Source: an archaeon (GTDB lineage: Archaea; Nanobdellota; Nanobdellia; Pacearchaeales; GW2011-AR1). From it: a DNA stretch of 35,897 nucleotides. Shown in pieces: positions 6,917 through 26,466 of the stretch (its first letter is position 1; every line of letters starts with the position of its first letter). The stretch covers positions 1 through 35,897 of the forward strand of contig DAOWDJ010000006.1 of assembly GCA_030639065.1 (NCBI GenBank), written 5' to 3'. A model generated the notes under the pieces. It searched no databases. It was not told the origin of the DNA and saw only the letters and a program-made list of their open reading frames with translations. Position numbers and translations under genes: made by a program.

Positions 6917-7088
6917 AGAAAAAAATCTCCAGATTTTTTTCTCGCAAGGACTTTGTCATTGCATAATACAAATACCTTTTGTTTCAAAATTCTATCTACC
7001 ATAGAAAAAAATCTCCAGATTTTTTTCTCGCAAGGACTTTGTCATTGCATAATACAAATACCTTTTGTTTCAAAATATTACCTATCAT
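6914..7088 (-). repeat. tandem 86-bp promoter-leader repeat, two units
   Basis: Unit starts (cat in the plus-strand text) are at 6914, 7000 and 7086. The units are near identical. The same family occurs at 21782-21978. Confidence 0.9.
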
Positions 7089-9829
7089 TATACTCTTCTT
7101 TGAAATCTAGATTTATTAATCTTTCTCCGCATTTGTTGTCTATTCTTAGTAATAATATTTTTATTATACGCGCCAACAGGCAACGGACCTTTGGCTACAA
7201 CTTTTGCAGCCTGCACATTTCTTGCCTTTCTATTTCTCGAAAATGCTGCAATTTTCTCAATCGGAATAATTTCAACTAAGCCCGTTCTCCTCCCTCTTGA
7301 CTTTCTAATAATATAATTAACTCGCTCACTGGACCAACCCCTCTTCCTCAATATTACGGCAATCCTCGAATCTTTCTTTCCTTGCGCTCTAGCATTCGTT
7401 ACATACATCAGAAGATTATACATTTGCCGACCATCCTTAAATAAATACTTCTCATACTTATGCTTATACCAAACCTGCAAAATAGTATAGATAATCAAAA
7501 CAAATACCAATGCTAGAAATACATAAATAACTGCTTCTGTTACTGGCTTACAATCGCTTCTGCAATTAATTGAATTTTCTCCATACTCCTCTTCACAAAC
7601 TAAATTATAATTACAACTTGTATCTATCGCACTCTCAAGAAGTATAGAACCTAATTTTGGAGAAATAAAAAATGATATTGCTTCCTCATTTTCATAATAA
7701 AATTCAAACGAAACATCCTCTTCGCTGCCCAAGACAATAACTGTTGCATCTCCCGCTTCTTTAGCTCCAACATCATTCTTAAAAAATAACTCACTAAGTG
7801 GCATATTAATTATAAAATAACTCTCCTCATTACTCCTAGAACTAATGTCAAAACTATATGTATTGAAAACTCCATTACTATCTCCATTCCATAAAGAAAT
7901 CAAAAATTCTTTTTTATCAAAACTTACATCAATATTTTCATTCTGCCAAACCAAAATAGGTTCTCTATAATATGTGCTATCTACCTCGCTTTCATCCCCT
8001 CCAGCTATGACAACGGCCTCAACATTAACGTCCTCAGCTTCAGTTATTAGATAAGAGCTATGATAGTCCTCAATATTAATTCTAGTTGGAATGTTTAACG
8101 TATAAAGATACTTAGCTATATCAACAAAATTCTGATCACTAGCAGCACTTTCTTTTGCTTCATCCAATCTATCTAGCTCATCATAAAAGAAAGTAGCATT
8201 GACGATATTTAATAATGCATCTTTATACCAAAAAGTAAAATTACTAAAACTAGAATTAATCTTATTTAAAGCATTTCTCTTAGATACTAGGTTTATATCC
8301 ACAGCCGCCCTAGGGCTAATAGCCTCAATTTCAAAACTTCTTTTAGATGTTAGACCTAGTCCGGCCCCAACTTCAAGATTCAATGTATAGTTACCTAAAT
8401 TTGCATAACTATGCGAAATACTAGGCTCACTTGTCGTGACAACCTTACCATCTCCGAAATCCCATTTATAACTTAATGAACTATTGTCATTAAAATTAAC
8501 TTTAGCATAAAATTGAATAGGCACACCCGCAGGAGGATTTAATGGAGAAACCGAAAAAATCTCTGGCACTAATAAAATTTCCATCACTTTACCAAAAAGT
8601 TCTTCCCCTCCAAGCTTAACAATATAATCCATACTTTTGGAAACACTAAACCCAAGCATCTCTAAATCGAGAACACCATCAAAATTAATCATAACCGAGC
8701 TAACATTTAATTCATAAATACGATCTTCGTCATCACCAAGCTCTCCCCCCTCTTTGTACGCCAAAGCTATGTCAGAAATACTAACATTTTGAGAAACCCC
8801 CGAAAAAACTAAAGGCAAAACACAACCTTCCGAACAATCTTTATCATATCTTTCTTCAATAATTTCATTGGCCATATCAAGCAATTCCTCATTCAAATCA
8901 CCATTATTAAATTCATTCCATTCAAGCCAACTAGAATCAGCATACTTTAAAGATTGAACAAAAATTCCATAATCTTTTACACTTTCTGTCTGACTTGACG
9001 GACCTACAAAGCCACAGTTTTCACCAACACTCTCCTCATAGATATAATAATCTGTATCCCCTGCTGCACTAATACAAACATAATAATCACCAACAGAAGA
9101 ATCTTCATTTATAAAACAACCCTCCTCTCCTAAGCTCGGGTTAAAATCACATGTCCCAAAAGTCCCACCAACGCTATTTTCAGAATAAACACTCATTGTT
9201 AAATCACTCGTTTCATCATTTGATATAGATACATCAGCCCCTACTCTCAATCCCCCACTATTTGGAATATTAATAAGCTCACAATAAAGCGAATCTCCAA
9301 TACGACGATCACCAGTTGTTCTACTAACCTTATCATAACATCCCCAATCTTTAGGTAAAAATGTAGTTGAAAATTCATTGAATTTCCAAAGCTCTTCCTC
9401 AAAAAATTTAATAATCAAAGGCATCCTATAACTTTCGTCAAAATCACTTTCTATACTAAAGCTCAAACCAGTTAAAACAACACTATCTCCATATAGGACA
9501 AATCCAATAGTCTTTTCCCCAGAAGAAGGAACACTAAAAGTCTCACCAGCAATATTTCCCAAAGGTTCATATCCATTCATACAACCAGAAGGGGAACACC
9601 CAAAATCTGCAGAGTTGAATTCCAAAAAATCTATAAGTCCAATCTCATCGTCATTATTAGATTCTATCTTAGCATCATAATCCGCCTCACTAATTGTTAG
9701 GTTAATTTCCCCTTTAATTATCTCAGACGGAAGAGAAATATTGCTAACATTTACATCGTGCACTGTAACCGCGCCCAAAGCAAATTCGCCAAACATACAA
9801 AGTAAAACTAATAACAACCACTTTTTCAT
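7088..9829 (-). CDS. large surface protein: signal peptide, PKD domain, C-terminal TM helix and 125-aa basic cytoplasmic tail
   Basis: Signal peptide MKKWLLLVLLCMFGEFALGA. PKD motif YKWDFGDGKVV...NYTLNLEV. TM helix AVIYVFLALVFVLIIYTILQVWY. SD GGTGAT upstream. Confidence 0.8.
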   Translation of the reverse strand: MKKWLLLVLLCMFGEFALGAVTVHDVNVSNISLPSEIIKGEINLTISEADYDAKIESNNDDEIGLIDFLEFNSADFGCSPSGCMNGYEPLGNIAGETFSVPSSGEKTIGFVLYGDSVVLTGLSFSIESDFDESYRMPLIIKFFEEELWKFNEFSTTFLPKDWGCYDKVSRTTGDRRIGDSLYCELINIPNSGGLRVGADVSISNDETSDLTMSVYSENSVGGTFGTCDFNPSLGEEGCFINEDSSVGDYYVCISAAGDTDYYIYEESVGENCGFVGPSSQTESVKDYGIFVQSLKYADSSWLEWNEFNNGDLNEELLDMANEIIEERYDKDCSEGCVLPLVFSGVSQNVSISDIALAYKEGGELGDDEDRIYELNVSSVMINFDGVLDLEMLGFSVSKSMDYIVKLGGEELFGKVMEILLVPEIFSVSPLNPPAGVPIQFYAKVNFNDNSSLSYKWDFGDGKVVTTSEPSISHSYANLGNYTLNLEVGAGLGLTSKRSFEIEAISPRAAVDINLVSKRNALNKINSSFSNFTFWYKDALLNIVNATFFYDELDRLDEAKESAASDQNFVDIAKYLYTLNIPTRINIEDYHSSYLITEAEDVNVEAVVIAGGDESEVDSTYYREPILVWQNENIDVSFDKKEFLISLWNGDSNGVFNTYSFDISSRSNEESYFIINMPLSELFFKNDVGAKEAGDATVIVLGSEEDVSFEFYYENEEAISFFISPKLGSILLESAIDTSCNYNLVCEEEYGENSINCRSDCKPVTEAVIYVFLALVFVLIIYTILQVWYKHKYEKYLFKDGRQMYNLLMYVTNARAQGKKDSRIAVILRKRGWSSERVNYIIRKSRGRRTGLVEIIPIEKIAAFSRNRKARNVQAAKVVAKGPLPVGAYNKNIITKNRQQMRRKINKSRFQRRV

Positions 9830-9994
9830 TTTTTAATCACCATCTTAACAAAATGAAACATGAAACTTCTTCGAAGTTACTTTTTCATAGAATAAAATAA
9901 CAACTATACTTTATAAATTTTCTGCAGAAAATTTATTCATGAAACATTTTTAATGTTACTTTATAAAACTTTCAAATTACTTTCTTTTAATATC

Positions 9995-10933
9995 TTAGTT
10001 GTTTCTAAAGAAATAATGCATTCCAATAACTAATAAAGAAATAAAAAATGCAAACAAACTAAATCCAGACAACTTAATTGTCGGCTCTCCACAAAATCTT
10101 TCATCCTCCCCACCATTACATTCAAACACCTCTAAACACTCTTCAGGAATAATATCACTAGTAAATCCCGCTATCGCAGTACTATCCGAGAACCATCTTA
10201 CATCTTGTTTCCCATCTATACACTCACCAAGTTCATAGATATTTGAGCACGAGAAAATACTTTGTATAGTAGAATTATCATAACCCGCTTCCACCGCAGA
10301 ATAGGTAATTCTACATTCTTTACCAGGAATAGAACCATTGTACCATTTACACTCATATCTCTCAACCGGAATTGACCAAACTCTGCCTGCACATTCTATA
10401 TAAGTCCCACTAAGCTCCGTCCCAATTCCAATTTGACCAAAATTAAATTCATCTGTTCCACATAACAATTCAGTATTATAATAATCACACCCATAATTTG
10501 TAAGATCATCCACACACTTTCCACTCTCTAGTAATTCTAACCACGTACAACCCCCTTCAGCACATTCGCCTGAGTTCACATAATCCACACAAGGTTCGGT
10601 CCTAGCTATACACCGAAACTCTCCCCCCCCAACATCTTCACAAGCCATATCACGAGGACAACAATAAGGTTCTCCTTCAGTATAATCATCTCTCCCTCTA
10701 GAGCACCCTAGTCCAACTTCCCTAGTTATCCACCCATCCTTATCTTCATCACAATAAAATTCCCCAAACGAATCCCCAATGGAACACTCACCAGGTGCAA
10801 CACCAACATTTTCACCTTCAAAATCAAAAATACATCCCCCAATATTAAAATCTGTAACAGTTGAAGATTGCCCACTAACACTAGAAAAACTAACCAAAAA
10901 AATCCCCAACAAAATTAATACCTTCAACCTCAT
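9995..10933 (-). CDS. Cys-rich secreted protein with C-terminal membrane anchor (start moved to MRLKVLILLG)
   Basis: Signal peptide, many Cys residues spread through the ectodomain, and a C-terminal hydrophobic segment LFAFFISLLVIGMHYFF. Confidence 0.65.
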   Translation of the reverse strand: MRLKVLILLGIFLVSFSSVSGQSSTVTDFNIGGCIFDFEGENVGVAPGECSIGDSFGEFYCDEDKDGWITREVGLGCSRGRDDYTEGEPYCCPRDMACEDVGGGEFRCIARTEPCVDYVNSGECAEGGCTWLELLESGKCVDDLTNYGCDYYNTELLCGTDEFNFGQIGIGTELSGTYIECAGRVWSIPVERYECKWYNGSIPGKECRITYSAVEAGYDNSTIQSIFSCSNIYELGECIDGKQDVRWFSDSTAIAGFTSDIIPEECLEVFECNGGEDERFCGEPTIKLSGFSLFAFFISLLVIGMHYFFRNN

Positions 10934-11021
10934 AAGTATTATACAAACCACCTCTTTATAAATATTATCAAAATTCACTCAGCAAAATCGTTTAAAAAAT
11001 AAGTCCTAGATGAATACAAAC

Positions 11022-12398
11022 CTAATCTATTTCTACCCTCAATGTAGCTGAATTTTTTCCAAAAACAGGGAATGCCCACCAAAACTTATAAGCCCGTTCC
11101 TCATCTGTTCCAAGATATACTTTCTCTACGCCCTCATCACCCGGATTAAATTCCCAATACCAGCTAAATAAATTCTGACCAGGAATAAGTAATTTTAAAT
11201 CCCCACTACTATCAATCTTTATACCTCGAGTAGTAGAGGCATCAAACCAAACATCACTATCATCGATATTACTATAATCTTTAGGCTCCAAAATACATGC
11301 CGCAGTATAATTTTTATTAGAAGTATAGGTACCGTCCACATCTCTATCTAAAATCATAATATTAGAAATTGCTCTAGCTTCATCCCCTCTGCTATTCTCA
11401 ACACTAACAACAATCTGAAAATCTCCGGCACTATCAAATTCTTCGTCAAGAATAATTCCTCCGTTACTAAAATTTATATTCTCGCCATTAACACTAATCA
11501 TTCCAAAAATCTCATTATCTGCATCATCTGCATCTACCTCAATTTTAAGTATAGTACTTTTGTTAAAATAATCTCCACATTCCGGCGATAAAATTGCAAC
11601 ACTCATCGGATCGTCATCTCTCTTAACATTAACTTTTAGCATATCACTTCTCTTATCATTAATCTCAAAATAAAACCCCTCAAAACCTTCAAGTAAAGGA
11701 AAATTTGACGCTTCATCTAAATCTGCCTGAGTTATCTCCCATTTCCCAATAACTCTATTTTCAACTACCTCACCAGAAATTCCTGCACTTTCAACCCTAA
11801 TTTCATCACGACCAAGCATGCCATCATCATCAAAAATTTCAAAAGTACTTTCAGATGTTCCCGTCACAACCATCTTAACAACATCTCCTAAATTCGCCTC
11901 CACAATCTCATTCCCATCCATATCTCCCCAATAAATAGTTGGCATAGCTATACAACAAACTTTTATAGGATAATCCATATTTAATGCATCCGAGATATGT
12001 GCATTAGAATAATCAGACATCCTCACCACAACCTGCCCACCATTCTCACAGCCATTATCTTCACTTCCAAGTTCATATTCACACTCCATCCCCCCATAAC
12101 AAACATCATTAGCATAAACCAAATCACTTTCATTTGATGCATGTGCATTCGTCACAGAAGACAAACTTAAAATTCTATTGTCTTCATCACAATCATGCAA
12201 TCTCTCTCCATTATATCTAGAATCAAAAATATCATTATAACAAATATCGTAAGTATAAAAACTATCATTCCATAAAGCACCATGAGAATTATCAGAACTA
12301 TATAATTTCATTATTGTCTGGTCGGGTTCACAACTTCCAGCACTAGCAACTCCAATAAACAAAATCAAAATGAATACTGTTACCAACCCCTTTTTCAT
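11022..12398 (-). CDS. secreted protein with a Cys-rich N-terminal half
   Basis: Signal peptide MKKGLVTVFILILFIGVASAGSC. TATA-like TTTAAATAG about 30 nt upstream. Confidence 0.65.
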   Translation of the reverse strand: MKKGLVTVFILILFIGVASAGSCEPDQTIMKLYSSDNSHGALWNDSFYTYDICYNDIFDSRYNGERLHDCDEDNRILSLSSVTNAHASNESDLVYANDVCYGGMECEYELGSEDNGCENGGQVVVRMSDYSNAHISDALNMDYPIKVCCIAMPTIYWGDMDGNEIVEANLGDVVKMVVTGTSESTFEIFDDDGMLGRDEIRVESAGISGEVVENRVIGKWEITQADLDEASNFPLLEGFEGFYFEINDKRSDMLKVNVKRDDDPMSVAILSPECGDYFNKSTILKIEVDADDADNEIFGMISVNGENINFSNGGIILDEEFDSAGDFQIVVSVENSRGDEARAISNIMILDRDVDGTYTSNKNYTAACILEPKDYSNIDDSDVWFDASTTRGIKIDSSGDLKLLIPGQNLFSWYWEFNPGDEGVEKVYLGTDEERAYKFWWAFPVFGKNSATLRVEID

Positions 12399-12434: not shown

Positions 12435-12542
12435 TAATAATTTTAATTCTTACTAAGCTTAGACGAGGCGGACGAACTCGTAGTGTGTATCAACACATGA
12501 GAATTCGTTCAACAAAGTATGAATCAGAAAGAATAAAAATTA
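12435..12542. repeat. element B: paralogue of element A, with imperfect inverted T-rich ends
   Basis: Shares TTAGACGAG, TAT[TC]AACA and CAAC[GA]AAGTAT[AG]AATCA blocks with element A. Its right end contains the rtcB stop codon. The central hairpin is CGAACTC..GTGTG-TATCAA-CACAT..GAGAATTCG. Confidence 0.55.
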
Positions 12543-13937
12543 TCCAATAATAACAATCACTGGCTTTAATCTTGCAACCTTTTTCCCAAGTCCCGCCTCA
12601 TCCGAAATACGAATAACTTCATCAATATCTTTATAAGAAAAAGGAGATTCCTCAACCATCCCCTTCTGTCCTCCAAACTCAACGAAAACACCTCGTTCAG
12701 CCATATCTATTTTTGCATCCTCAAAACTCATCATCTTATGAGCCTCACTTCGACTCCGAGCCCGACCAGCCCCATGTGCCGTAGAACCCCAAGAAATTTC
12801 TTCCGCTTTTTTTGTCCCACATAAAACGTAACTCGCCGTCCCCATCGATCCAGGAATCAAAACGGGCTGACCAACCTTCCGATAAATCTTAGGAACCTCA
12901 ACTCGCCCAGGACCAAAACTTCTAGTCGCCCCCTTTCTCATAACTAAAACTTCTTTATTCCCAAACTTTTCAAATTTCGCAATATTATGACAAACATCAT
13001 AAACTACATCTGCCTTGAAATCCGGAAAATAATGTTTCATATCCTCACGAATAAAATGCGTGATTATCTGTTTATTCGCAAACGCAAAATTTGCTGCACA
13101 TGCCATCGCGCCCAAATAATCCTGTCCAAGTTTAGATTTAATCGGTACATTTGCCAACTCCCTACTAAAACTCGGATAACCATATTTATCCCCTATCAAT
13201 TTGATATAATCTGATGCAACCTGATGTCCGAATCCACGAGAACCACAATGAATTAAAATAACGACCTGTCCAGTCTCCAATCCAAAAACCTCAGCAACGT
13301 TTTTATCGAAGATTTCATCGACAACTAAAATATCCAAAAAATGATTTCCGGCACCAAGAGTTCCTAATTGATGCATCCCCCGCCCCTTAGCTCTCTGTGA
13401 CACCACCAAAGGATTCGCCCCCATCATTTTTCCTTCCTCCTCGGTATACAACCAATCTGCTTTCTCTCCATAACCCTTTTCAACAGCCCATTGTGCTCCA
13501 CCTGTTAAAACCTCATCCAATTCTTTATTATTCAATGATAATTTACCCTTCCCGCCAACTCCAGACGGAATCGCACGAAACAAAGAATGCGCAATTTCTT
13601 TTTCTTTCCCAGCTAAATCTTCCGCCTTCAAATTCGTTTTCAATAACCGTACCGAACAATTTATATCATAACCAATACCCCCTGGTGAAATCACACCCTC
13701 ATCAGCATCAAAAGCTGCAACGCCACCAATTGGAAATCCATATCCCAAATGCATATCTGGCATAGCATAACTTGCCTTCAAAATCCCAGGTAATTTCGCA
13801 ACATTTTTCACCTGCTCTAAACACTTACTATCAAAATCTTTAGCAAAACTTTCACTAGCGAAAATTCGTCCCGGAACATTCATCTCACCCTCGATAGGAA
13901 TCTCCCACTCCATATCATTTATTTTCTTAAGTTTCAT
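12540..13937 (-). CDS. rtcB: RNA 3'-phosphate ligase RtcB (tRNA-splicing ligase)
   Basis: Motifs GYDINCSVR, HCGSRGFGHQVA and HGAGR. Typical length of 465 aa. Confidence 0.95.
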   Translation of the reverse strand: MKLKKINDMEWEIPIEGEMNVPGRIFASESFAKDFDSKCLEQVKNVAKLPGILKASYAMPDMHLGYGFPIGGVAAFDADEGVISPGGIGYDINCSVRLLKTNLKAEDLAGKEKEIAHSLFRAIPSGVGGKGKLSLNNKELDEVLTGGAQWAVEKGYGEKADWLYTEEEGKMMGANPLVVSQRAKGRGMHQLGTLGAGNHFLDILVVDEIFDKNVAEVFGLETGQVVILIHCGSRGFGHQVASDYIKLIGDKYGYPSFSRELANVPIKSKLGQDYLGAMACAANFAFANKQIITHFIREDMKHYFPDFKADVVYDVCHNIAKFEKFGNKEVLVMRKGATRSFGPGRVEVPKIYRKVGQPVLIPGSMGTASYVLCGTKKAEEISWGSTAHGAGRARSRSEAHKMMSFEDAKIDMAERGVFVEFGGQKGMVEESPFSYKDIDEVIRISDEAGLGKKVARLKPVIVIIG

Positions 13938-13971: not shown

Positions 13972-14802
13972 CTATTGCTTAAATAACGCTCTCGCCCCAG
14001 TCGTAATCAACAAAGTCACTACGAGTAAAATAAAAGAATGTTTAAACCCATGCTTAATACTCCCCTCTGAAATTTTTCCAATTACAAGCCCGGCAAAAAA
14101 AGACTGGATTAAAATCATAACAAATAATGGAGTAGAAAGCGTATCAGAATCTACAGAACTAGTAGTCATAGACATCCCTTCCCCCGACCCACCTAAGTCT
14201 GATACCAATGGCAAAATCTTAAATTCTAAGACCAACATAATAATGATGAAAATAAAAAAAATTAAATAACCCTGTGTAACTAAATTCGAAACTGCCGCCT
14301 TCTTCTCCTTCCTAAGTTGTTCGATCTGATTAACCGAACGAGAAACCGAAGATAAAATTGTATCTATCTTTCCCCCCGCCCTCTCTGCCTCACTAATTAA
14401 ATCAACCGCCCTCGAAATAATTTTGCTCTTTGTATCCTTAGCAAAAGTTGAAAACGCATCTGATAAAGTAATGCCAATTGATAGCTGATTAGCCAATTTA
14501 CTTACATGCTTAGTTAAAGCTCCATAATTCCTTCCACTCAAATTCATAATAGCTTTAGTAATTGGTGTACCAGACTTAACATTCTCAACTAAATCTCTCG
14601 TAAATTCCAAAAACTTTTCCTCTTTTTCCTTGTATCTACTTTGCTTAGAAAGAAGACCAAGCATAAATGGTAACGAACCTACAAAAAAAGAAATAACTAA
14701 TAAAAAATACATTAAATTACTTCCAACAAACATAACTACCGAACCTATCGCCAACAAAACCCCTGCGCCAACTCCAAGCCAATGCATCTTTTCTAATTTC
14801 AT
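13972..14802 (-). CDS. single-domain T2SSF (TadB/TadC/FlaJ-type) platform membrane protein
   Basis: Two N-terminal TM helices, a cytoplasmic helical domain (FLEFTRDLVENVKSGTPITKAI...AFSTFAKD...LISEAERAGGKID), then TM helices. Confidence 0.7.
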   Translation of the reverse strand: MKLEKMHWLGVGAGVLLAIGSVVMFVGSNLMYFLLVISFFVGSLPFMLGLLSKQSRYKEKEEKFLEFTRDLVENVKSGTPITKAIMNLSGRNYGALTKHVSKLANQLSIGITLSDAFSTFAKDTKSKIISRAVDLISEAERAGGKIDTILSSVSRSVNQIEQLRKEKKAAVSNLVTQGYLIFFIFIIIMLVLEFKILPLVSDLGGSGEGMSMTTSSVDSDTLSTPLFVMILIQSFFAGLVIGKISEGSIKHGFKHSFILLVVTLLITTGARALFKQ

Positions 14803-14866: not shown

Positions 14867-15064
14867 TTATTTCCGAGGTATAATTATCCAAGCAAGCAAA
14901 TAAGCAAGGATACCAAATCCGAATCCAAACACAAAAAGAACCCATAATAATCTAACCAATACGGGATCAATCTCAAAATAATCAGCAATCCCGGCACAAA
15001 CACCAGCAATTATAGAATCTTCTCGAGACGCACGATACAATCTTTTTACTTTCTTTTTAACCAT
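14867..15064 (-). CDS. PspC-domain membrane protein
   Basis: LYRASREDSIIAGVCAGIADYFEIDPVLVRLLWVLF is a typical PspC domain, followed by a TM helix. Confidence 0.8.
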   Translation of the reverse strand: MVKKKVKRLYRASREDSIIAGVCAGIADYFEIDPVLVRLLWVLFVFGFGFGILAYLLAWIIIPRK

Positions 15065-16308: not shown

Positions 16309-16310
16309 AA

Positions 16311-17657: not shown

Positions 17658-18974
17658 TTATAACCCTTCGTCAACCTTCCTAATCGCAGTTGGTGCCTCT
17701 CCGCCATGCCAGGTAAATCTCGGTCTAACTCTCATTGGATAAATTCTTTCTGAATTATCATCTAAAATAATTGCCGAACCTTTTAGTCGAGGTAATCCAT
17801 TCAACTTCGAAGAAATACTTGAATGCATATAACTTTGAGTAATGTCATTTAAGGCATCGACATCTAGCTTTGCCGTAACCCTGTGTAAAATAACTATATC
17901 TGACTGAGTCATAGCATCCGTATGAATTTTCCCAGGCTGTTGAGTTGCCATAACCATTGAAACACCTGGCTGTCGCCCCTCTCTCAGTAACTGCACCAAT
18001 GCATCTGTAGATGGAGTTTTCCCAACAGATTCATGAGGCAAAAATTCGTGAGCCTCATCTATAAATATCCAGACCAACGGCATTTCCCTCTTAACTCGAT
18101 ATCTCGCATAATCCGCTCCATGTTGCACAGCCTGAATTTCTTCGTCTTTCCTCGACGCCATTCTCTCATTAAAAATCTTTTTCGAAACTAACCCAATAAT
18201 TAAAGCCCTGACATTAAAAGCTCCAAGTGAAGCATACATAGATAAATCAATCACGGTAGTCTGACCGGCAGAAATCAACTCACGAACCAAGGTTCCTTTT
18301 TCCTCATCAAAAACTTTCCACGTTCTAGCCGCATCAAATAAAGCCGTAGCAGAATTTTTAACTTCTTGTTCAACATTTTCAACACGATTAATTAAACTAT
18401 AAATATCATCGAAACTAAAACCATTCTTAGTCTCCCTCAACTCACTAATCACAGACTCCATTATAACCGCTATCGGATCAGTAAATTTCAACTCAAAAAG
18501 TGTAACCCAATCCGACGGCTCCAACTCCGAAATCTTAATCGCAAATTCCGCATCAATATCTATCCCCTTATCCTTATACTCTTGATAATAACCAAACGGA
18601 GCAAAAACTTTCATCGGAACATTTTTTGCTTTTAGTTCCCATTCATCCAATAAGTCTTCATCTTTAACATTTTTATATTTCATAGTCCAATAAATTCCCA
18701 TCGTATCAAAAATTACCGACGCTATATTCCCCGACTCTTCAAGTCCCAAATCGGACAACGCTTCCGCCATAGTTCCCATTGTATAACTTTTTCCGCTCCC
18801 CCTCTTTCCAGATATCAAAACAACATGACTCCTAGCAACATCCATATAAATCGGATTAGATAAAGAAGTATAATTTCCCATTGTCACAAAACTCTTCCCA
18901 ATAAAAGCCAATCCTCTATTCCCAAACGTTTTCTTATCGCTATCATTCCTCCCAATAATCACATCAAATGGCAT
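17658..18974 (-). CDS. HerA/FtsK-superfamily (DUF87-type) ATPase (start moved to MPFDVIIG)
   Basis: Barrel-like N-terminus (VIIGRNDSD...GLAFIGK). Walker A SGKRGSGKSYTMG. Walker B WIFIDEAHEFLP. Confidence 0.8.
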   Translation of the reverse strand: MPFDVIIGRNDSDKKTFGNRGLAFIGKSFVTMGNYTSLSNPIYMDVARSHVVLISGKRGSGKSYTMGTMAEALSDLGLEESGNIASVIFDTMGIYWTMKYKNVKDEDLLDEWELKAKNVPMKVFAPFGYYQEYKDKGIDIDAEFAIKISELEPSDWVTLFELKFTDPIAVIMESVISELRETKNGFSFDDIYSLINRVENVEQEVKNSATALFDAARTWKVFDEEKGTLVRELISAGQTTVIDLSMYASLGAFNVRALIIGLVSKKIFNERMASRKDEEIQAVQHGADYARYRVKREMPLVWIFIDEAHEFLPHESVGKTPSTDALVQLLREGRQPGVSMVMATQQPGKIHTDAMTQSDIVILHRVTAKLDVDALNDITQSYMHSSISSKLNGLPRLKGSAIILDDNSERIYPMRVRPRFTWHGGEAPTAIRKVDEGL

Positions 18975-19032
18975 AAAATAAAAACAAAACACAAACTAAT
19001 AAACCTTACGTAATTCAAAACTTCCTAGAAGT

Positions 19033-19252
19033 TACCTCCAAGCTCGCGAATTTGATTTTAGAATTATCGCTAATTAAGAGGATGTATAACAAAGGAGGAT
19101 AGGAGAAGTCCGAAACGAGCTCGTGTAGGTTGTCCAGCCCGAAGGGAAAGGACAGCACGATAAAGCGAAATTTTGCGTAGCGCCAGACGAGCACGAAGTT
19201 GAATGTGAAACATTCAGAATATGGTTTTCTACTTTGCCTCAGCAGAGGTACA
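19033..19252 (+). ncRNA. GC-rich structured ncRNA, best guess a miniaturised RNase P RNA (boundaries uncertain)
   Basis: CR-I-like AGGAGAAGUCCG is at 19101-19112. CR-V-like CAGAAUAUGGUUUUC is at 19215-19229. GAAGUCC (19105-19111) can pair with GGUUUUC (19223-19229) as a P4-like helix. Nested helices are GCUCGU 19119-19124 / ACGAGC 19187-19192 and GUCC..CCC-GAA-GGG..GGAC 19132-19153, plus the hairpin GAAUGU-GAA-ACAUUC 19201-19215. Confidence 0.4.
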
Positions 19253-19296: not shown

Positions 19297-20040
19297 CTAC
19301 CAAATTTTGAAACTAAATCTCTCATTAATAAAAGTTCCATCATTTTTCAAAACTCCAAATACATAACTTTCAACCATAATATCCACTGAACTCGGAATAC
19401 CTAGCTCTGGCTCCATATTAACTTCAGGTGAAGTTTCAGTTACAATCGCAAAATCAAAAATCGGAGGAATTTTTAATTCATTTTTTAAACTATCATAATT
19501 GCTATAATACTCTCCACTCATCTCTTCCAAAGCACTATAAGAAACAACTTGTCTCTCAATAACACTTCCTAATTCACAATTCTCCCTCTCAATATCTTCA
19601 CAACCTTCATCATCAATATCTTCATCACTAAACTCGGGAGAAAATGCAATCCTAAAAGCAGTCTCGCCCTCATGGTCTATATTCAATTTCCAACCACCCG
19701 ACCCAGTTTGCATAAGTCCACAATCAATATCATCCCCTCCTAGTTTCGTTACATGACTTTTGCCTTCAATTATCCTATAACTAAAAATTTCTTCCAATAT
19801 CTTTATAGAAAAACAATCCGCACCCCCAGAACTATCAACTTTCAAAAACATATTAGACAAATTAGTATAAGTTCTCTTTTCAAAAGAATCATGAAGCCCC
19901 GTAAGCACCGAACTAGATAAGGTTGACGAATCAGTAGGTTTCAAAGTACTAAAAAGAAAAAATACAAATCCAGTAAAAAATACAAATGCAATTATCATTT
20001 CAAGATGTGCCGCACCCTTTTTATCCATCAATCCTCTCAT
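19297..20040 (-). CDS. pilin-like protein with a class III signal (KKG/AAHLE)
   Basis: MDKKGAAHLEMIIAFVFFTGFVFFLF has a basic stretch, Gly, Glu at +5 and a hydrophobic helix. TATA TTATATAAAT lies upstream. Confidence 0.5.
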   Translation of the reverse strand: MRGLMDKKGAAHLEMIIAFVFFTGFVFFLFSTLKPTDSSTLSSSVLTGLHDSFEKRTYTNLSNMFLKVDSSGGADCFSIKILEEIFSYRIIEGKSHVTKLGGDDIDCGLMQTGSGGWKLNIDHEGETAFRIAFSPEFSDEDIDDEGCEDIERENCELGSVIERQVVSYSALEEMSGEYYSNYDSLKNELKIPPIFDFAIVTETSPEVNMEPELGIPSSVDIMVESYVFGVLKNDGTFINERFSFKIW

Positions 20041-20128: not shown

Positions 20129-21499
20129 CTACACTTTCGGTTGTTTCATATTTAAGACTACAATAAAGATAATATTCACAATAGCTATTCCAACAATACT
20201 CAAAGCTAATAGCGTCGTAATAGTTAACCCCCCCATTCCCAGACCTGCAACATTCATAACTATAAACATCATCATTAGAACTAGAGGCGCTGCAATTAAA
20301 ATAGAAATATAAACATCCATGAAAGTGCCTGCCAAATCTATATACTGCTGTCGTTCTAATCTATAATCTACTAGAAAATTTTCCGCCTTCTTTTCAAGAT
20401 AACTTTTTAATTCGCCACCACTTGAAATATTTGTAGCCAATCCTGAAAATAATTCTGCCAATTTTCTATTTGAAATTCGTACTGCTACATTCTTCAGAGA
20501 AGTCACTAAATCATAACCATAGATATCAACCTGTGCAATTATTTTCCGAATTTCTTTACCAACATTTGGGTACTCATTAGACGCTGCGATAATCTTGAAA
20601 ATTTTTGTAGGTTCAATATTAGAACCTGCAATCGCAGCCATGTAAATTGTTGCGAAAGGTAACTCTTGAGAAATTCTCTTCTGAACAGACTTGGATTCGC
20701 TAGAAGGATACAAATAAAAAAAAGCCATAACCAAACCAGAAAGACCTAAGGGTAAAACAAAATACACCCAATTATTTAGACTAAAAGCCAATAATACTAA
20801 AAAAATTAAAAGTCCAAAAATAAAAGCAACTACCATAGAAGCAATTGCCATAGATAGATAGCTAGATAACAAAAATCGGATATTTGCTTTCTTTAATTCT
20901 TTTGCCAAATTACCAAACTGAGGCACTAACTTATCAGAATATTTCCTAAAAAATTTGTTAGACAATCTTACAAAAGAATTCGGCTTAATACTAGTTGCAT
21001 CAGGAGTTTTCTTTTTTATTTTATTAATCTTACCAATAGCCTCTTTGGACAATTTTAATTTTTTTAAAAACTCTTTTTTATCTTCCTCGTTAACTGTAAC
21101 ATAACTTTTTTCTTTTGTATTGGGTGAAACATAATTCACTCTAGCTGTTGACTTCACAGCTTTATTAGTAGTCTGATTAGGTAATTTTTCCGAACCTGTA
21201 GTTTTACTAGGAGAATTCACTTTCTTCTTATCTGCACTAATTGGCATCTTTTTCAATACGGGTAATTTTTTAGAAGACACACTATCCACAACCTTGTTAG
21301 TCCCAACAGTCGACGGCTTCATTTCTAATAATTTAGGTACACTATCATTCAATAACATCAATTGTTTTTCTAAAGCTTTTAAATTCGAATAGTAAAATCT
21401 TTGATTACGCATATCACCCTGCATCGCTAATTGAACCGATCTCATATTAACAAGAATTTTTTTTTCTTGCTCAAGATTTTTTTTCAGATCTTCAAACAT
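20129..21499 (-). CDS. T2SSF/FlaJ-type platform protein with a ~230-aa K-rich N-terminal extension (start moved to MFEDLKK)
   Basis: C-terminal half: LPFATIYMAAIAGSNIEP...LKNVAVRISNRKLAELFSGLATNISSGGELKSYL, flanked by TM helices. SD GGAGG lies upstream of the ATG at 21499. Confidence 0.72.
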   Translation of the reverse strand: MFEDLKKNLEQEKKILVNMRSVQLAMQGDMRNQRFYYSNLKALEKQLMLLNDSVPKLLEMKPSTVGTNKVVDSVSSKKLPVLKKMPISADKKKVNSPSKTTGSEKLPNQTTNKAVKSTARVNYVSPNTKEKSYVTVNEEDKKEFLKKLKLSKEAIGKINKIKKKTPDATSIKPNSFVRLSNKFFRKYSDKLVPQFGNLAKELKKANIRFLLSSYLSMAIASMVVAFIFGLLIFLVLLAFSLNNWVYFVLPLGLSGLVMAFFYLYPSSESKSVQKRISQELPFATIYMAAIAGSNIEPTKIFKIIAASNEYPNVGKEIRKIIAQVDIYGYDLVTSLKNVAVRISNRKLAELFSGLATNISSGGELKSYLEKKAENFLVDYRLERQQYIDLAGTFMDVYISILIAAPLVLMMMFIVMNVAGLGMGGLTITTLLALSIVGIAIVNIIFIVVLNMKQPKV

Positions 21500-21625
21500 T
21501 TTTCGACCTCCAGATAGAATAAATGTTTCCATGAAACGTGTCATGCGTTACTTCAAACATTTTCCAGCCTCCAAGATGGACAAATGTTTCTATGAAATAT
21601 CTCGCATATTACTTCAAACATTTTG
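21490..21625 (-). repeat. 61-bp tandem duplication of the SD/start region of the platform gene
   Basis: CTTCAAACATTTT occurs at 21490, 21551 and 21612. Each unit carries GGAGG and ATGTTTGAAG in gene sense. Confidence 0.85.
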
Positions 21626-21784
21626 TTCCCCAATATCTTTGCCAATTTGATTATGTAAATCAAAAATGAAAGTCCTCAATTTATTAATTTTATCTGTTTC
21701 TTTGTTTGCAACAACTTTTTCCAATTGCAATACTGCATCACTCATAGAATCCACCAACTGTCCAACAAGTTCAATATCTACCAT
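21614..21784 (-). CDS. small helical protein, 56 aa (start moved to MVDIELVG)
   Basis: The ORF-track N-terminus (21785-21838) reads through the 85-bp repeat. The ATG at 21784 has the repeat-borne SD upstream. Confidence 0.45.
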   Translation of the reverse strand: MVDIELVGQLVDSMSDAVLQLEKVVANKETDKINKLRTFIFDLHNQIGKDIGEQNV

Positions 21785-21978
21785 AGACAAAAATCTCCGA
21801 TTTTTTTCTCGCAAGGACTTTGTCATTGCATAATACAAATAGCTTTTGTTTCAAAATTTTATATACCATAGACAAAAATCTCCGATTTTTTTCTCGCAAG
21901 GACTTCAATCACCAGATTACCTACTGGGTTGTCATTGCATAATACAAATACCTTTTGTTTCAAAATTCTATCTACCAT
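21782..21978 (-). repeat. tandem 85-bp promoter-leader repeat, two units, the distal one with a 24-nt insertion
   Basis: Unit starts are at 21782, 21867 and 21976. The insertion caatcaccagattacctactgggt at about 21906-21929 sits in the loop of the unit hairpin. Confidence 0.9.
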
Positions 21979-22071: not shown

Positions 22072-23604
22072 TTATCTCGTTACTCCATACTTCTTTAAAA
22101 TCCCAGCAGGATTTTTTGAATAGTCATTTATGACCCTCTGAACATCCTCATAACTCAAAACTTTATTTTGAAATAACGCATATAATAGTCTTGCTCGAAT
22201 TTCAAATTCTTTTTCTATATTGTCTTTCGAAATACCTACTTTTTCAGCAATCTTATCAAAAATCTTACTATTCTTCGCGTGATAGAATTTATCATCTGCG
22301 GGATTCCATTTAAATGGAGTATTTGTCAAAGTCGTCCCATCCGCTTCAACACTTATAACTTCGACAATCTCCCGTAGTTTTCGCGTCTCCTTGCCATTCA
22401 CAATAGCATGAGTCATAATCATCATTGCATCCAATCCATTAACTAACATCGGACTCAAACTAATTGGTGGTGTTTCTAGCCTACGAACAATTGAGTCAAC
22501 AGAGTCACCATGCATTGTTGAAATCGAAGCATGCCCCGAAGCCATACCCTGAAATAAAACAGATGCTTCTTTACCCCTAACCTCTCCAACAATCACATAA
22601 TCTGGGTTCTGTCTAAATGAACTTTTAAGTAAAGAATCCATATTAATCTCTCCGGCACCCTCACTAGAAATTCCAGTTCGAACAACCGACGGTAACCAAT
22701 TTTCCCTAGGTAAATTTAATTCCCTAGTATCCTCAATCGAAACAACCCTATTCTCTTGAGGAATGAAAAATGCCATAGCATTCAATAAAGTTGTCTTACC
22801 AGAAGCCGTCCCACCAACAATCATAATATTAGATTGATACTGCAACAAAATCCAAAAATAAGCTAACATCTCAGGACTCAGCGTATGGAAACCGATTAAT
22901 TGTGTTGGAGTCCAAGGTGTTTTAGTAAACTTACGAATAGTAAACGTAGGTCCTTTCGAACTAATATCCTGAGTATATGTTGCATTAACCATAGACCCAT
23001 CAGGCAAACCTCCATCCAGAATTGGAGAAGCATAAGAAATATAACGCCCTGTTTTTTGTGCAAGTTTTTCAACGAAACTAGATAACTTATTCATATCATT
23101 AAACTTTACAGTTGTTTTAATGTTTCGAAAAACCCGATGCACAATATAGATATATTCCCCCATTCCATTACACTCGATATCCTCAATAAAATAATCCTTC
23201 ATCATTGCTTCTATCTCATTTAGCCCAACAAAATTTCTGTATAAATAATAAAACATTTTTTTATAACTCTCTTTTTCAATAGTCAAACCTAATTCCGAAA
23301 TAATCAGCTTAGCTGTTTTATCGATATAATCCAATAAATTTTCTTTAGTATTTTTTATACCAACCATTTTCACATTTACAACTTCCCTAATTGTCTGCTC
23401 AATTTTAGCCAAATTTCCTTTTTCCTCTTCAGAAAGTATCGGCTCTTCAATATCATAAATAACTTCACCAGATTTTTCATCATAATAAATATGGATAGAA
23501 ACATATGGAACAATAACCATATATCTAACATCTATCTTTATCTTATCATCAAACTTAGGAATCATTGGGGCTTTCGGATTAGAATTTATATTTATATCAC
23601 CCAT
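22072..23604 (-). CDS. type IV filament assembly ATPase (FlaI/PilB/VirB11 family)
   Basis: Walker A GGTASGKTTLLNA, then VVSIEDTRELNL and PDYVIVGEVRGKEA. Confidence 0.92.
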   Translation of the reverse strand: MGDININSNPKAPMIPKFDDKIKIDVRYMVIVPYVSIHIYYDEKSGEVIYDIEEPILSEEEKGNLAKIEQTIREVVNVKMVGIKNTKENLLDYIDKTAKLIISELGLTIEKESYKKMFYYLYRNFVGLNEIEAMMKDYFIEDIECNGMGEYIYIVHRVFRNIKTTVKFNDMNKLSSFVEKLAQKTGRYISYASPILDGGLPDGSMVNATYTQDISSKGPTFTIRKFTKTPWTPTQLIGFHTLSPEMLAYFWILLQYQSNIMIVGGTASGKTTLLNAMAFFIPQENRVVSIEDTRELNLPRENWLPSVVRTGISSEGAGEINMDSLLKSSFRQNPDYVIVGEVRGKEASVLFQGMASGHASISTMHGDSVDSIVRRLETPPISLSPMLVNGLDAMMIMTHAIVNGKETRKLREIVEVISVEADGTTLTNTPFKWNPADDKFYHAKNSKIFDKIAEKVGISKDNIEKEFEIRARLLYALFQNKVLSYEDVQRVINDYSKNPAGILKKYGVTR

Positions 23605-23664: not shown

Positions 23665-24192
23665 TTAAATACCACTAAAATCAATCACAATATTACCATC
23701 CGCATTTCTCCCCGTATTTTCAACTGCTAATTTATATGGAGTCGGAGCAACATCTAACTGTTTTATTCCAGAAGTTTCATTATTATATCTGATATCCAAG
23801 TCATATTTTAACTCTAACTTAATCATCCAAGGTTTTCCTTTCGTTGTAGTTACATTTATTCTCCCTACCGAAATCGACATATCTTCTTCACTATACATGA
23901 AACTCGAATCCAAAATCCACAAAACGGTGTCTTCTTCCACGTCAATAACTAATGCCCCTTTCCTAATATCTAAATCTATAATACGCCTATTTCCTGCTGC
24001 CCTTAAAACCTCATAAACCTTATTATCAATATTACCTAAAGCTTCAATAGACTGCTCAATCATCGCTTCATCTTTTTTTTCATTTATCTTAGGTAAAGCA
24101 GCTGCTAAAACCAAACCAATAATAGCCAAACCAATCAAGGTATAAATTACAGTCTCAACCCAAATCTGCCCCTTTTTCCTAATCATCCTCAT
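23665..24192 (-). CDS. pilin-like protein, KG/Q...E5 class (start moved to MRMIRKKGQ)
   Basis: RKKGQIWVETVIYTLIGLAIIGLVLAAAL. Confidence 0.62.
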   Translation of the reverse strand: MRMIRKKGQIWVETVIYTLIGLAIIGLVLAAALPKINEKKDEAMIEQSIEALGNIDNKVYEVLRAAGNRRIIDLDIRKGALVIDVEEDTVLWILDSSFMYSEEDMSISVGRINVTTTKGKPWMIKLELKYDLDIRYNNETSGIKQLDVAPTPYKLAVENTGRNADGNIVIDFSGI

Positions 24193-24273
24193 AACTATAA
24201 AATAGAGATTATGTTTATATACTTTCCGAAGAAAATATAGAAGGGTCACAAGACCCAATTTAAAAATAATTAA

Positions 24274-24795
24274 TTAACATTCCTTAAGAACCATGCTTGA
24301 AGAAGATTCACAGGTTTTCTCTGTATTGCCTACAACAACAATAGGAGCGATAGTAATTCCATCTATATCTGCACCATCAACCACGGAACTAGTGTCCAAT
24401 ATAAAGACTCGCTTTTCGTTAGCATTAGGTAACTTATCTACAGTCATAGGATCTGGATAAAGCGTTGTCGCATCAACCAGATTAAACGACTCTGTGCTTC
24501 CAGCAACAGAAATTAAAATCTGAACATCTATCAAATCAAAAGACTTAGATCCACGTTTTATCTGAAAAGAAACATTGTCTCCATTTGCACCAACACAATT
24601 ATACCCCTCGTCAGCCAACTGAAGTTGGGTTACTGCATCCAAACAAATCGTTCCAGATTCAAGTTGGTCACCAACCATAGGAATAATAGCGACCCAAACA
24701 ATTGTAACGGCAGCGACGGTAATTAAAATTATTAAAACCGTAGCAACTATAGCACTTATACCCTTTTTCCCCAAATTTACTTTTTTATTATTCAT
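24274..24795 (-). CDS. archaeal type IV pilin (Pilin_N/DUF1628-type N-terminus)
   Basis: GKKGISAIVATVLIILITVAAVTIVWV. SD GGGGGG upstream. Confidence 0.8.
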   Translation of the reverse strand: MNNKKVNLGKKGISAIVATVLIILITVAAVTIVWVAIIPMVGDQLESGTICLDAVTQLQLADEGYNCVGANGDNVSFQIKRGSKSFDLIDVQILISVAGSTESFNLVDATTLYPDPMTVDKLPNANEKRVFILDTSSVVDGADIDGITIAPIVVVGNTEKTCESSSSMVLKEC

Positions 24796-24950: not shown

Positions 24951-25412
24951 TCAAAGCGTAACTCCTGCATCCATACAAGTGAAAACTTTATTTATACTTT
25001 TACCTTTAACTTTGCCAATTAACGCAGGATAAACGATTATTTTATCCGGTACCGAACCATCTGTCATTTCAAAATTGATATATCCGGTAACACTTCCTCC
25101 TGCATCAACCTGAATATCAAATTTCCTTATCTCTGAATTACCAACAGAATCGAACAACTTAATCTCTAAATGACGAATATCAACATTCCCCCTATTAATA
25201 ATTTCCACTTCTTCATCCTCATATACACTAGCCTCAAAATTAATTGATGAGCAAGACTCTTCAATAGAAATTCCAAATTTCTCGACATGCTCACTAACAA
25301 AACCCCTAGCCCATAAAAAAATCATAGTCGCTAAAACCAAAACCAACAAAATCATTAAAACACTAGCAATCACAGGAGAAAGTCCACGCTCATTTTTAAT
25401 ACTCTTTTTCAT
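24951..25412 (-). CDS. archaeal type IV pilin (Pilin_N/DUF1628-type N-terminus)
   Basis: NERGLSPVIASVLMILLVLVLATMIFLW. Confidence 0.85.
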   Translation of the reverse strand: MKKSIKNERGLSPVIASVLMILLVLVLATMIFLWARGFVSEHVEKFGISIEESCSSINFEASVYEDEEVEIINRGNVDIRHLEIKLFDSVGNSEIRKFDIQVDAGGSVTGYINFEMTDGSVPDKIIVYPALIGKVKGKSINKVFTCMDAGVTL

Positions 25413-25445
25413 ATTATTATAGATTCTTCCAATTTATAAACATAA

Positions 25446-25934
25446 TTATCCGCATGTTACCTTTTGAGAGACATAAGCCTTACAGCTTATCTGACTTTTT
25501 TCCATCATAAATGGCTGAACTTCAACTAATGTAATAACATCTAATGTCTTGCCATCAAAATCATAATCGTCAAAATAATAAATTGCTTCATATTCATCCC
25601 CAGGTTTAATCTCTATTCCTACATCATCAAAAGTATAAAACCCAAAATCTGCATCCTCTCTATCATGAACTCGCAACATATATCCATCTACTGTGAACAA
25701 ACCTTTATTCTTCAAAGTCACTGTTAAATTGCCACCTACCCCACTAAAACACTCGTAGTTTTTTATAATAATATTAACATTATCCGAACATTCCTCGACG
25801 CTAGACTCGCTAACATAAAAACGCAACCATCCAAAGACCAGAACTGATAAAGAAAGAGTAATTGAAATTAACAAAACATAACCAATAACATTACTCAGCG
25901 CCCTCTTCCTATCCAACCGCAATATAGACCTCAT
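25446..25934 (-). CDS. archaeal pilin-like protein (DUF1628-type N-terminus, start uncertain)
   Basis: RKRALSNVIGYVLLISITLSLSVLVFGW. Confidence 0.65.
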   Translation of the reverse strand: MRSILRLDRKRALSNVIGYVLLISITLSLSVLVFGWLRFYVSESSVEECSDNVNIIIKNYECFSGVGGNLTVTLKNKGLFTVDGYMLRVHDREDADFGFYTFDDVGIEIKPGDEYEAIYYFDDYDFDGKTLDVITLVEVQPFMMEKSQISCKAYVSQKVTCG

Positions 25935-26466
25935 CTTCCACATCCTTTTGTATTATAAAAATAATTTGATAATATTCCGTAATAGAAAAACTAAGGCTTT
26001 CACCCCCAATCTCAACAACAATCTCACTAACTCCAATCAAATCCTCAACACTTAAAATTGTCGTATCAATCTCGTCATCCTCAAGAGCAACGAAAGATCC
26101 TCCATAAGATATAGTACTCGTAGAAACATCATCATCCCATTCACCTGTTATTGTAATCCCAGTAGTAGTACTCCCATATATAATAACAAAGTTAGCATCC
26201 GGCTCTTTATTTCTAACATTTTCAGTAAGTGTTATAATAAACTCCTCCAAATCAATCTCACTACCACCCTCATCATCCTCAACGGTATAAATTTCATAAT
26301 CCAATGCTGCACTCGACTCCCTCTTCACCTCATAACTAAATTCGTAAAACTCCTCAGGCTCACTAGTTACAATAGCTCTATTTATAGTAACCCCTAAACT
26401 AAGCACTACCATAGAAATTATAACAGCCGCCAATAAAAAAAGTTGCCCCCGCTTATTCATCACCAT
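25909..26466 (-). CDS. pilin-like protein, KG/Q class
   Basis: MNKRGQLFLLAAVIISMVVLSLGV. TATA TTTTATAAAC about 30 nt upstream. Confidence 0.55.
   Translation of the reverse strand: MVMNKRGQLFLLAAVIISMVVLSLGVTINRAIVTSEPEEFYEFSYEVKRESSAALDYEIYTVEDDEGGSEIDLEEFIITLTENVRNKEPDANFVIIYGSTTTGITITGEWDDDVSTSTISYGGSFVALEDDEIDTTILSVEDLIGVSEIVVEIGGESLSFSITEYYQIIFIIQKDVEDEVYIAVG

Follow-up and report, generated by a model that had tools for sequence, protein, structure and literature searches.

Archaea of the DPANN group (named after Diapherotrites, Parvarchaeota, Aenigmarchaeota, Nanoarchaeota and Nanohaloarchaeota) spend their lives fixed to other cells, and the means by which they stay attached and exchange material are an open question. 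A stretch of about 19 kb on contig DAOWDJ010000006.1 (positions 7088-26466 of the window, by which we mean the whole 35,897-nucleotide sequence analyzed) combines type IV filament genes, a HerA-type ATPase and several surface proteins and thus raises the question of whether these genes encode one machine. A preliminary description of the region had proposed such a single apparatus for cell-cell contact or uptake. All the genes listed there proved to be intact, correctly placed open reading frames (ORFs) with the family matches claimed. Judged from gene content and order, however, the stretch is likely a co-directional array of four separately conserved blocks, which were brought together and then shuffled in this lineage. 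By homology and synteny, the first block is shown to be a predicted type IV pilus operon with one platform gene displaced. The second consists of the HerA-like ATPase, with its own promoter-like TATA box, and the convergent Trm5 gene; this ATPase is not a demonstrable pilus component. The third is the RNA ligase gene rtcB, and the fourth is a surface array that ends in a 458-aa and a 913-aa protein and continues into arvABC.

With about 34% G+C, the 35.9-kb window is rich in A+T. It appears to be an entire contig, as no longer contig was seen to carry its HerA-like protein. Between 5.3 and 28.4 kb, coding is almost wholly on the minus strand, and the gene for Trm5 is the sole plus-strand gene of the ~19-kb stretch. 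Archaeal markers in the window are RtcB, OapB/OapC, a PC4-like protein and the signal recognition particle (SRP) RNA, and the closest protein relatives lie on contigs labelled Woesearchaeota, Pacearchaeota or Nanoarchaeota. For comparison, homologues of the HerA-like protein served to retrieve 80 genome loci, and homologues of the C-terminal half of the pilus platform (C half) another 80 from metagenomes, giving 160 scan-fetched loci; counts anchored on the C half come from 78 of the metagenome loci. Individual loci are given by their L numbers. The window proteins were scored with Pfam and NCBIfam profiles, and profile comparisons with solved structures were also used.

The pilus operon was found again in about 100 related loci. 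In relatives, it runs on one strand in the order five pilins, ATPase, a gene of about 56 codons, platform N half, platform C half, the pilin-like gene p247 and a further pilin-like gene, c4. Independent gene calls and precomputed Pfam labels for L161 reproduce this order. In the C-half-anchored metagenome set, the ATPase gene lies upstream in 31 of 37 loci, p247 downstream in 45 of 53 and c4 in 36 of 42.

In the window, all genes of this block are on the minus strand. The first (25909..26466) encodes a pilin-like protein of 185 aa with a class III-like N-terminus (NKRG/QLFLLAAVIIS, the slash marking the predicted cleavage site); the same family occupies the same position in relatives. It is followed by a type IV pilin of 165 aa at a conserved position (25446..25943; RKRA/LSNVIGYVLLISITL), which scores 24.4 bits with the arch_flag_Nterm model (cut-off 20) and matches UpsA at 2e-7. 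The next type IV pilin, of 153 aa (24951..25412; ERG/LSPVIASVLMILLV), reaches 31.5 bits with the same model and cut-off, 9e-8 with UpsA and 1.5e-4 with Pfam Pilin_N. A third type IV pilin of 173 aa (24274..24795; KKG/ISAIVATVLIILITV) stays under the cut-off of 20 with 16.8 bits and is conserved in relatives. The fifth gene (23665..24258) encodes a pilin-like protein with Glu at +5 (KKG/QIWVE), whose N-terminus is nearly invariant among 15 relatives; it is listed with a TTG start, and the true start is probably the ATG near 24192. The last pilus-operon gene kept here, p247 (19297..20040), also encodes a pilin-like protein with Glu at +5 (KKG/AAHLE) and a conserved N-terminus. As had been proposed, all six small proteins carry class III signal-like N-termini, that is, [KR][KR][GA] followed by a hydrophobic stretch. 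The NCBIfam cut-off for archaellin/pilin N-termini is passed by two of the six, and the motif is present in six of six and kept in relatives; cleavage is a prediction.

The assembly ATPase, of the hexameric FlaI/GspE2/PilB type (22072..23604, 510 aa), matches T2SSE at 7e-30 and is 63-86% identical in relatives. Its PF00437 score of 104 bits lies well above the cut-off of 24.9 and places it among the secretion ATPases. Against solved structures, it matches Archaeoglobus fulgidus GspE2 (2OAP) over its full length at 2e-101, FlaI at 5e-79 and CpaF at 5e-44. With GspE2 and Sulfolobus FlaI (4II7/4IHQ), it shares the N-terminal domain and the RecA-like motor in full-length similarity; unlike FlaI, it is not accompanied by archaellum accessory genes and does not reach the equivalog cut-off for FlaI. 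A small conserved soluble protein with no family match (21614..21838; about 56 aa from an ATG near 21784) is encoded between the ATPase and the platform, and its gene is present at this place in 19 genome loci and in about half of the pilus-anchored metagenome loci.

The two T2SSF proteins had been described as separate single-domain platform proteins. They are indeed single-domain products of separate genes, but they match complementary spans of the 555-position ArlJ profile and thus make up a single platform as its N and C halves, a relation that the preliminary description had missed. The TadC-like N half (20129..21544; T2SSF 1.8e-13) covers ArlJ positions 10-249 and has a Lys-rich cytoplasmic extension of about 220 aa. 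The TadB-like C half (13972..14802; T2SSF 3e-18) covers positions 265-546. Both exceed the PF00482 cut-off of 25.2 bits (66.4 and 51 bits) and hence belong to the platform family. The halves are two ORFs in 29 of 29 genome loci, often with overlapping stop and start codons; they are adjacent in 28 of these, the exception being L020, and the N half adjoins the C half in 45 of 48 metagenome loci. Only in the window and its close relative L020 is the C half shifted by about 5 kb, and there it adjoins rtcB. The displaced gene is undamaged, and its product presumably continues to pair with the N half.

Two tandem single-domain platform genes, which are explained by gene fission, are a described hallmark of Epd-like archaeal pili and bacterial Tad pili (PMC6668835). 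The tandem arrangement holds across the relatives, while the two genes are separated in the window itself. In comparison with the Epd pili of Methanococcus maripaludis and the bacterial Tad/Flp pili (Denise et al. 2019, PMC6668835), the locus shares the FlaI/TadA-type ATPase, the two one-T2SSF platform genes with a TadC-like N half and a TadB-like C half, and several small pilins with class III signal peptides; adhesion is the presumed role of these systems too. It differs in that EppA or another prepilin peptidase, a TadZ-like protein and a secretin are absent, and no ParA/MinD-like gene was found in the window. Further differences are the five upstream pilins with one or two downstream pilin-like genes (Glu at +5), the conserved 56-aa protein between ATPase and platform, the extra ~220-aa cytoplasmic extension of the N half and the non-adjacent platform genes. 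We call the operon Epd/Tad-like, a label that describes its predicted gene make-up and not a phylogenetic placement.

An archaellum, serving motility instead of adhesion, is the alternative suggested by the profile names: the top NCBIfam match of the ATPase is the FlaI model (381 bits, 8e-114), and the platform halves match ArlJ models best. Yet all three proteins miss the equivalog cut-offs (381 vs 550 bits for the ATPase, 95 and 85 vs 550 and 400 bits for the platform halves). FlaH, FlaF/G, FlaC/D/E and FlaX were found neither in the window nor among the Pfam labels of L161, the nearest structural relative of the ATPase is the non-archaellar GspE2, and the split platform is a trait of Epd/Tad pili. 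We regard an archaellum as hardly conceivable here. The assignment to a lineage-typical, non-archaellar type IV pilus is secure as a prediction from homology.

As the preliminary description had stated, no archaellum accessory gene and no A24 prepilin peptidase occur among the window ORFs scanned; the peptidase was likewise absent from the Pfam-labelled relative L161, the search covering the window and that one locus. By analogy with known type IV pilus families, a prepilin peptidase encoded elsewhere would cut the class III signal peptides, and the ATPase would turn the two-piece platform and thereby extrude the pilins into a surface filament. This filament would serve attachment to a host cell or another surface; adhesion is the likely role, as it is the one typical of the family.

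The window lacks c4. No remnant of it was detected in the gap between p247 and the HerA-like gene, and weak tblastn matches fell elsewhere in the window. In relatives, c4 is fused to Cys-rich repeat C-terminal extensions in L089 (9675-11636) and L019 (201-1106) and to a LamG/concanavalin-like region in L098 (9636-10703), which suggests that an adhesin domain can be part of c4. In L007 (6729-7757), a related Cys-rich ORF precedes the HerA-like gene. The Cys-rich extension of the L089 pilin was also considered as kin of the Cys-rich proteins of the window and showed no similarity to them.

The HerA-like ATPase (17658..18974, minus strand, 438 aa) matches DUF87/HerA at 1.8e-12 and has no transmembrane (TM) segment, so the earlier assignment as a soluble HerA/FtsK-superfamily ATPase stood. 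Its PF01935 score of 48.3 bits against 23.2 places it in the FtsK-HerA superfamily, and the motifs GKRGSGKS and IDEAHEF are invariant across 26 HerA-like sequences. The family profile matches solved HerA structures at 5e-13 to 3.5e-8 and FtsK at 1e-3. With HerA of Sulfolobus (4D2I) and anti-phage HerA (8WIV/8XAU), the protein shares Walker A and B and the C-terminal half of the motor domain. It differs from the HerA helicase in having only about 45-55 residues before the P-loop and no HAS-barrel, the best-matching structure being about 110 N-terminal residues longer, and in an equivalog score of 29-30 bits against cut-offs of 800-970. The HerA-NurA system also differs in its partners. No NurA, Mre11, Rad50 or Sir2 partner is encoded near the window gene, and NurA, Mre11 and Rad50 were absent from the window and from the sequence-identified conserved neighbour clusters of the 80 genome loci. 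The window ATPase instead belongs to a separate archaea-wide family of 237 clusters (E<=1e-30).

Across the 80 genomes, the HerA-like protein is 60-90% identical. Only 8 of 29 pilus-anchored loci, all of them closer relatives, have its gene after the pilus operon; in more distant relatives, archease and RtcB or the surface pair occupy its place. In a sister clade (60-63% identity), its neighbours are the small and large subunits of replication factor C (RFC), a thioredoxin-like protein, Trm5, FEN1 and PolB, and iterated hidden Markov model searches detected no pilus gene within 10 kb of it. In L077-type loci and L041-L076 (e.g., L061 10001-11311), where the HerA-like gene is not linked to the pilus, the RFC subunit genes consistently lie upstream of it, with FEN1 and PolB within 10 kb, a neighbourhood of replication genes. 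The most persistent neighbour is the Trm5/TYW2 tRNA methyltransferase (15481..16308, plus strand; Pfam 1e-26), which is convergent with the HerA-like gene; 47 of 80 loci retain the two side by side, and the clade that lacks the pilus linkage is among them.

The gene also has a promoter-like leader of its own (18975..19013, minus strand), with a TATA-like box about 26-33 nt before the ATG. The 36 nt before this ATG are 83-97% identical in DNA to eight relatives. Starts of the TATA-like motif peak at -30..-25 of the HerA-like gene (56 of 75 loci, against 14 and 8 in control windows), and the distance is fixed in pilus-linked and unlinked loci alike. We used this position-resolved count because TATA scoring across gene families was uninformative, the consensus being too strict and the gene starts uncertain. 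A sigma-70 promoter and terminator scan, which is not applicable to archaea, gave counts that did not differ from those of shuffled sequences.

More distant members of the family are found in other settings. On an Aenigmarchaeota contig (L163, 672-1970), one lies beside thymidylate kinase (Tmk) and a Hef-type helicase-nuclease. In Heimdallarchaeota (L165, 8001-10646), the members have 881 aa with added N- and C-terminal regions, and the gene is located two genes upstream of ESCRT-III (Snf7), near CDC48. Other members are fused to DUF835. Inteins interrupt Walker A in orthologues of L020 (8750-11191), L031 (8825-11248), L058 (1745-3469) and L089 (11666-14302) at two sites, GKRG/C...HN/SGKS and GKRGSGK/C...HN/SYT (slashes mark the intein borders), as homing-endonuclease-sized forms and as a mini-intein. 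Many representatives in the 50% library have 580-1300 aa and match in two or three stretches. The window copy has no intein.

The HerA-like ATPase is most likely a DNA-handling housekeeping motor that was placed after the pilus operon by rearrangement in one sub-clade. One finding weighs against this assignment: in about 29 of 30 loci of the window clade, the gene comes next after the last pilin gene, on the same strand and only 30-100 nt away. The AlphaFold model of the protein was unusable (predicted local distance difference test, pLDDT, 42; an alignment of 16 sequences with 79-91% identity). Read-through may co-express the ATPase with the pilus in the window clade, and we hold a clade-specific functional link between the two to be improbable.

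The short same-strand spacer is also the first argument for the single apparatus, in which pilus, HerA-like ATPase and surface and Cys-rich proteins would act together in contact or uptake, with a HerA-like hexamer as DNA or substrate translocase in analogy to Ups/Ced. HerA and FtsK relatives are DNA pumps, the top NCBIfam name match is the DNA-import ATPase CedD (2e-11), and in the closest relatives the gene after the HerA-like one often encodes a secreted protein. Yet CedD is matched with only 43 of the 600 bits required and CedB with 19 of 700, and CedA/CedB, ComEC-like and other channel proteins were not found in the window. Moreover, 21 of 29 pilus-anchored loci and the entire sister clade lack the linkage to the pilus, the gene has its own conserved promoter-like box, the family occurs in Aenigmarchaeota and Asgard archaea without pilus genes nearby, and the Cys-rich proteins are not conserved.

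The comparison with the Sulfolobales, which have Ups pili and the Ced system (CedA, A1, A2, B, D; PMC11823120), goes in the same direction. A type IV pilus and a HerA/FtsK-superfamily ATPase occur in the same organism there as well as here, and two window pilins are weakly similar to UpsA (1e-7; 32 bits against a cut-off of 130). However, no CedA-type membrane proteins were detected in the window, and CedD of the Sulfolobales is membrane-bound, whereas the window ATPase is soluble. The Ced genes lie outside the ups operon in the Sulfolobales too. We consider the single apparatus quite unlikely. What stood of the proposal is the conserved non-archaellum type IV filament set and the recurrence of the 458-aa and 913-aa families downstream of it; membership of the HerA-like ATPase and the Cys-rich proteins was not supported, and the PKD protein has a closer tie to arvABC than to the pilus. 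Literature searches yielded no description of archaeal pilus loci with a HerA-like ATPase, nor of a locus of the present type for Woese- or Pacearchaeota.

Anti-phage defence offers another role for the ATPase, as the motor of a system of the Sir2-HerA, DUF4297-HerA or MADS type. The top solved-structure matches are anti-phage HerA proteins, and PADLOC gives mad8 at 7e-20 (69.8 bits) and HerA models down to 4e-19. These scores are at superfamily level only, and none of four scanned neighbouring proteins matches a PADLOC defence family. Defence genes are normally patchy in distribution, and a protein with 60-90% identity and one copy per locus in stable synteny with Trm5 in the 80 genome loci shows the opposite pattern. 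A defence role is very improbable.

The 322-nt gap between p247 and the HerA-like gene (18975-19296) contains a conserved structured element of about 90 nt (19100..19200, minus strand), a possible small RNA that may be the non-coding RNA of the preliminary description. Its core, GCTGTCCTTTCCCTTCGGGCTGGACAACCT, is 81-84% identical to L010 and L017; in the closing helix, the sequence is swapped and the pairing kept (fold z-score -2.4). The element lies at the same place upstream of the HerA-like gene in L010 and L161 and downstream of it in L017. It has no Rfam match at E<=1.

The surface array ends in two conserved proteins on the minus strand. The secreted 458-aa protein (11022..12398) is modelled by AlphaFold (pLDDT 89) with a three-repeat N-domain and three Ig/Fn3-like sandwiches. 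A fold search with this model returned generic multi-Ig surface proteins at low template-modelling scores and hence points to no specific function. The family is fast-evolving, with 53 homologues at 31-53% identity, and its gene lies upstream of the PKD gene in at least 11 loci, at -32 to +79 nt in relatives.

The 913-aa protein (7088..9829) had been described as a PKD surface protein, which holds: it is a type I membrane protein with an N-terminal signal peptide, an ectodomain of about 740 aa with one PKD domain (4e-13), a TM helix at aa 760-778 and a cytoplasmic tail of about 135 aa. Its family comprises about 100 full-length clusters, mostly of 870-920 aa and 25-67% identity. The tail is among the best-conserved stretches, with 15 invariant residues in aa 781-856, and has no domain match.

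Directly downstream of the PKD gene, just past the region covered by the preliminary description and missed by it, lie three genes on the minus strand that resemble an arvA-arvB-arvC operon (5277..6916). They encode a small GTPase (arvA-like, 6278-6916; MMR_HSR1 3e-15, 56.7 bits), OapB (ArvB, 5809-6240; 2.7e-14, 53.4 bits) and OapC (ArvC, 5277-5654; 1.5e-26, 93.6 bits). The PF01926 GTPase, OapB and OapC are thus consecutive on one strand and above cut-offs, which is the ArvABC gene order; the identity of ArvA rests on gene context, since no curated ArvA model exists. In Haloferax, ArvA drives the formation of extracellular vesicles, and homologues are reported from Nanoarchaeota (PMC10927574). 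As in ArvABC of Haloferax volcanii, a single-domain PF01926 GTPase is followed by OapB (ArvB) and OapC (ArvC); the present lineage differs by the conserved 913-aa PKD membrane protein ahead of the operon (PMC10927574). The arvA analysis in the main text of that study concerns genes downstream of arvA only.

Of 11 informative relatives, 10 have the GTPase and OapB genes after the PKD gene, even where PKD identity is as low as 29%, and the gap between PKD and arvA can be as short as 1 nt. The PKD gene is directly upstream of arvA-arvB(-arvC) in the window, L005, L103, L158, L167-L171 and L173. Speculatively, the cytoplasmic tail would link the PKD protein to the membrane-remodelling ArvA-like GTPase. 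In the window, the spacer between the PKD and arvA genes is filled by two tandem 86-nt repeats (6897..7068) that are 93% identical, each with a perfect 26-nt palindrome, AGAAAAAAATCTCCAGATTTTTTTCT; in relatives, this spacer measures only 1-164 nt. A duplicated terminator or promoter would be one explanation of the repeat, a link to an origin another.

Whether the pilus and the surface block belong together depends on how their adjacency is read. The co-occurrence that a shared apparatus would entail was seen in part for the 458-aa/913-aa families: of 21 pilus-anchored loci with at least 6 kb of sequence beyond the operon, 10 have them downstream. It failed for the HerA-like ATPase (8 of 29) and the Cys-rich proteins (3 and 1 of 160). 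Most loci have archease and RtcB wedged in between operon and pair, spaced just as closely. In more distant relatives, archease and RtcB come immediately after the pilus operon, and in 17 loci the archease gene begins only a few bases from the last pilin gene. As a housekeeping archease is just as tightly spaced in the array, tight spacing is no sign of shared function. In three distant loci anchored on the PKD gene (L169, L170 and L172), the 10 kb upstream of that gene are free of pilus genes. Together with the wedged archease and RtcB, these pilus-free loci make adjacency in compact, co-oriented genomes weak evidence of shared function.

Some observations weigh against a full separation of the blocks. 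The 458-aa/913-aa pair abuts the pilus operon in L145, L150 and L158 without an intervening housekeeping gene, and in L103 c4 is succeeded at once by the 913-aa gene alone; the abutting pair could reflect a real functional tie between pilus and surface proteins. In addition, the fusion of some c4 proteins to Cys-rich or LamG-like domains means that pilus and adhesin functions cannot be fully separated in this lineage.

One reading of these arrangements is a cooperation of the pilus operon with the surface block (458-aa and 913-aa proteins and ArvABC) in host contact, without the HerA-like ATPase. The pilus would attach, the surface proteins would bind the partner, and the PKD tail would recruit ArvA to form a vesicle or bridge. 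The adjacency of PKD and arvA in relatives, the strongly conserved PKD tail and the vesicle role of ArvA in Haloferax with its homologues in Nanoarchaeota (PMC10927574) fit this cooperation. The pilus-free loci do not, nor do the functionally unrelated archease and RtcB between the blocks in most loci, where synteny evidently carries unrelated genes; moreover, the PKD tail has no domain match, and ArvA is identified by gene context. On balance, we hold this cooperation to be possible, if rather doubtful. A wider version, in which pilus operon, 458-aa/913-aa pair and arvABC form a host-contact and exchange apparatus of Woese-/Pacearchaeota-type DPANN archaea, the PKD tail recruits ArvA for vesicles or a bridge, and the HerA-like motor was recruited in the window sub-clade to move nucleic acid, seems to us unlikely. 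We thus keep to separately conserved blocks as the probable explanation of the stretch.

The remaining genes of the stretch are on the minus strand. Three further secreted proteins had been called Cys-rich. Two of them are: the protein at 9995..10978 has 23 Cys (7.0%) and a C-terminal TM anchor, and that at 16311..17621 (436 aa) has a signal peptide, 18 Cys (4.1%) and no family match. The third, the 458-aa protein, has only 10 Cys (2.2%). Both Cys-rich proteins are lineage-variable. Among the 160 scan-fetched loci, homologues of the former occur at the same position in L004, L005 and L021 only, and the latter has one homologue, at a different position. The Cys-rich proteins are fast-turnover surface genes.

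RtcB (12540..13937; Pfam 5e-161) is a housekeeping RNA ligase. The preliminary description was right to caution that the housekeeping genes scattered through the stretch speak against one operon. At 14867..15424, a 96-aa two-TM protein, whose family was found in 8 relatives, is encoded together with a 65-aa PspC-domain protein (PspC 5e-25). Upstream of the pilus operon, the SRP RNA (26503-26758, minus strand) was matched by the bacterial large-SRP model with 61.5 bits against a threshold of 60, ahead of a lower-scoring match of the same SRP clan. On the plus strand, the gene at 33865-34719 adjoins pyruvate:ferredoxin oxidoreductase genes, and its product may be one of the minimal archaeal [FeFe] hydrogenases.

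For the biology of this lineage, the analysis yields a pilus gene set of seven pilin families, the ATPase, a small partner protein and a two-piece platform that is lineage-wide and can be used for annotation. The HerA-like ATPase is taken out of the pilus and flagged as a highly conserved, intein-hosting, uncharacterized archaeal motor. The pilus itself is of an already known type, and the leads worth following are the uncharacterized HerA-like family and the linkage of the PKD gene to arvABC. The latter is the most useful new lead, as it would offer a testable tie of a receptor at the cell surface to the remodelling of membranes in these symbiotic archaea.

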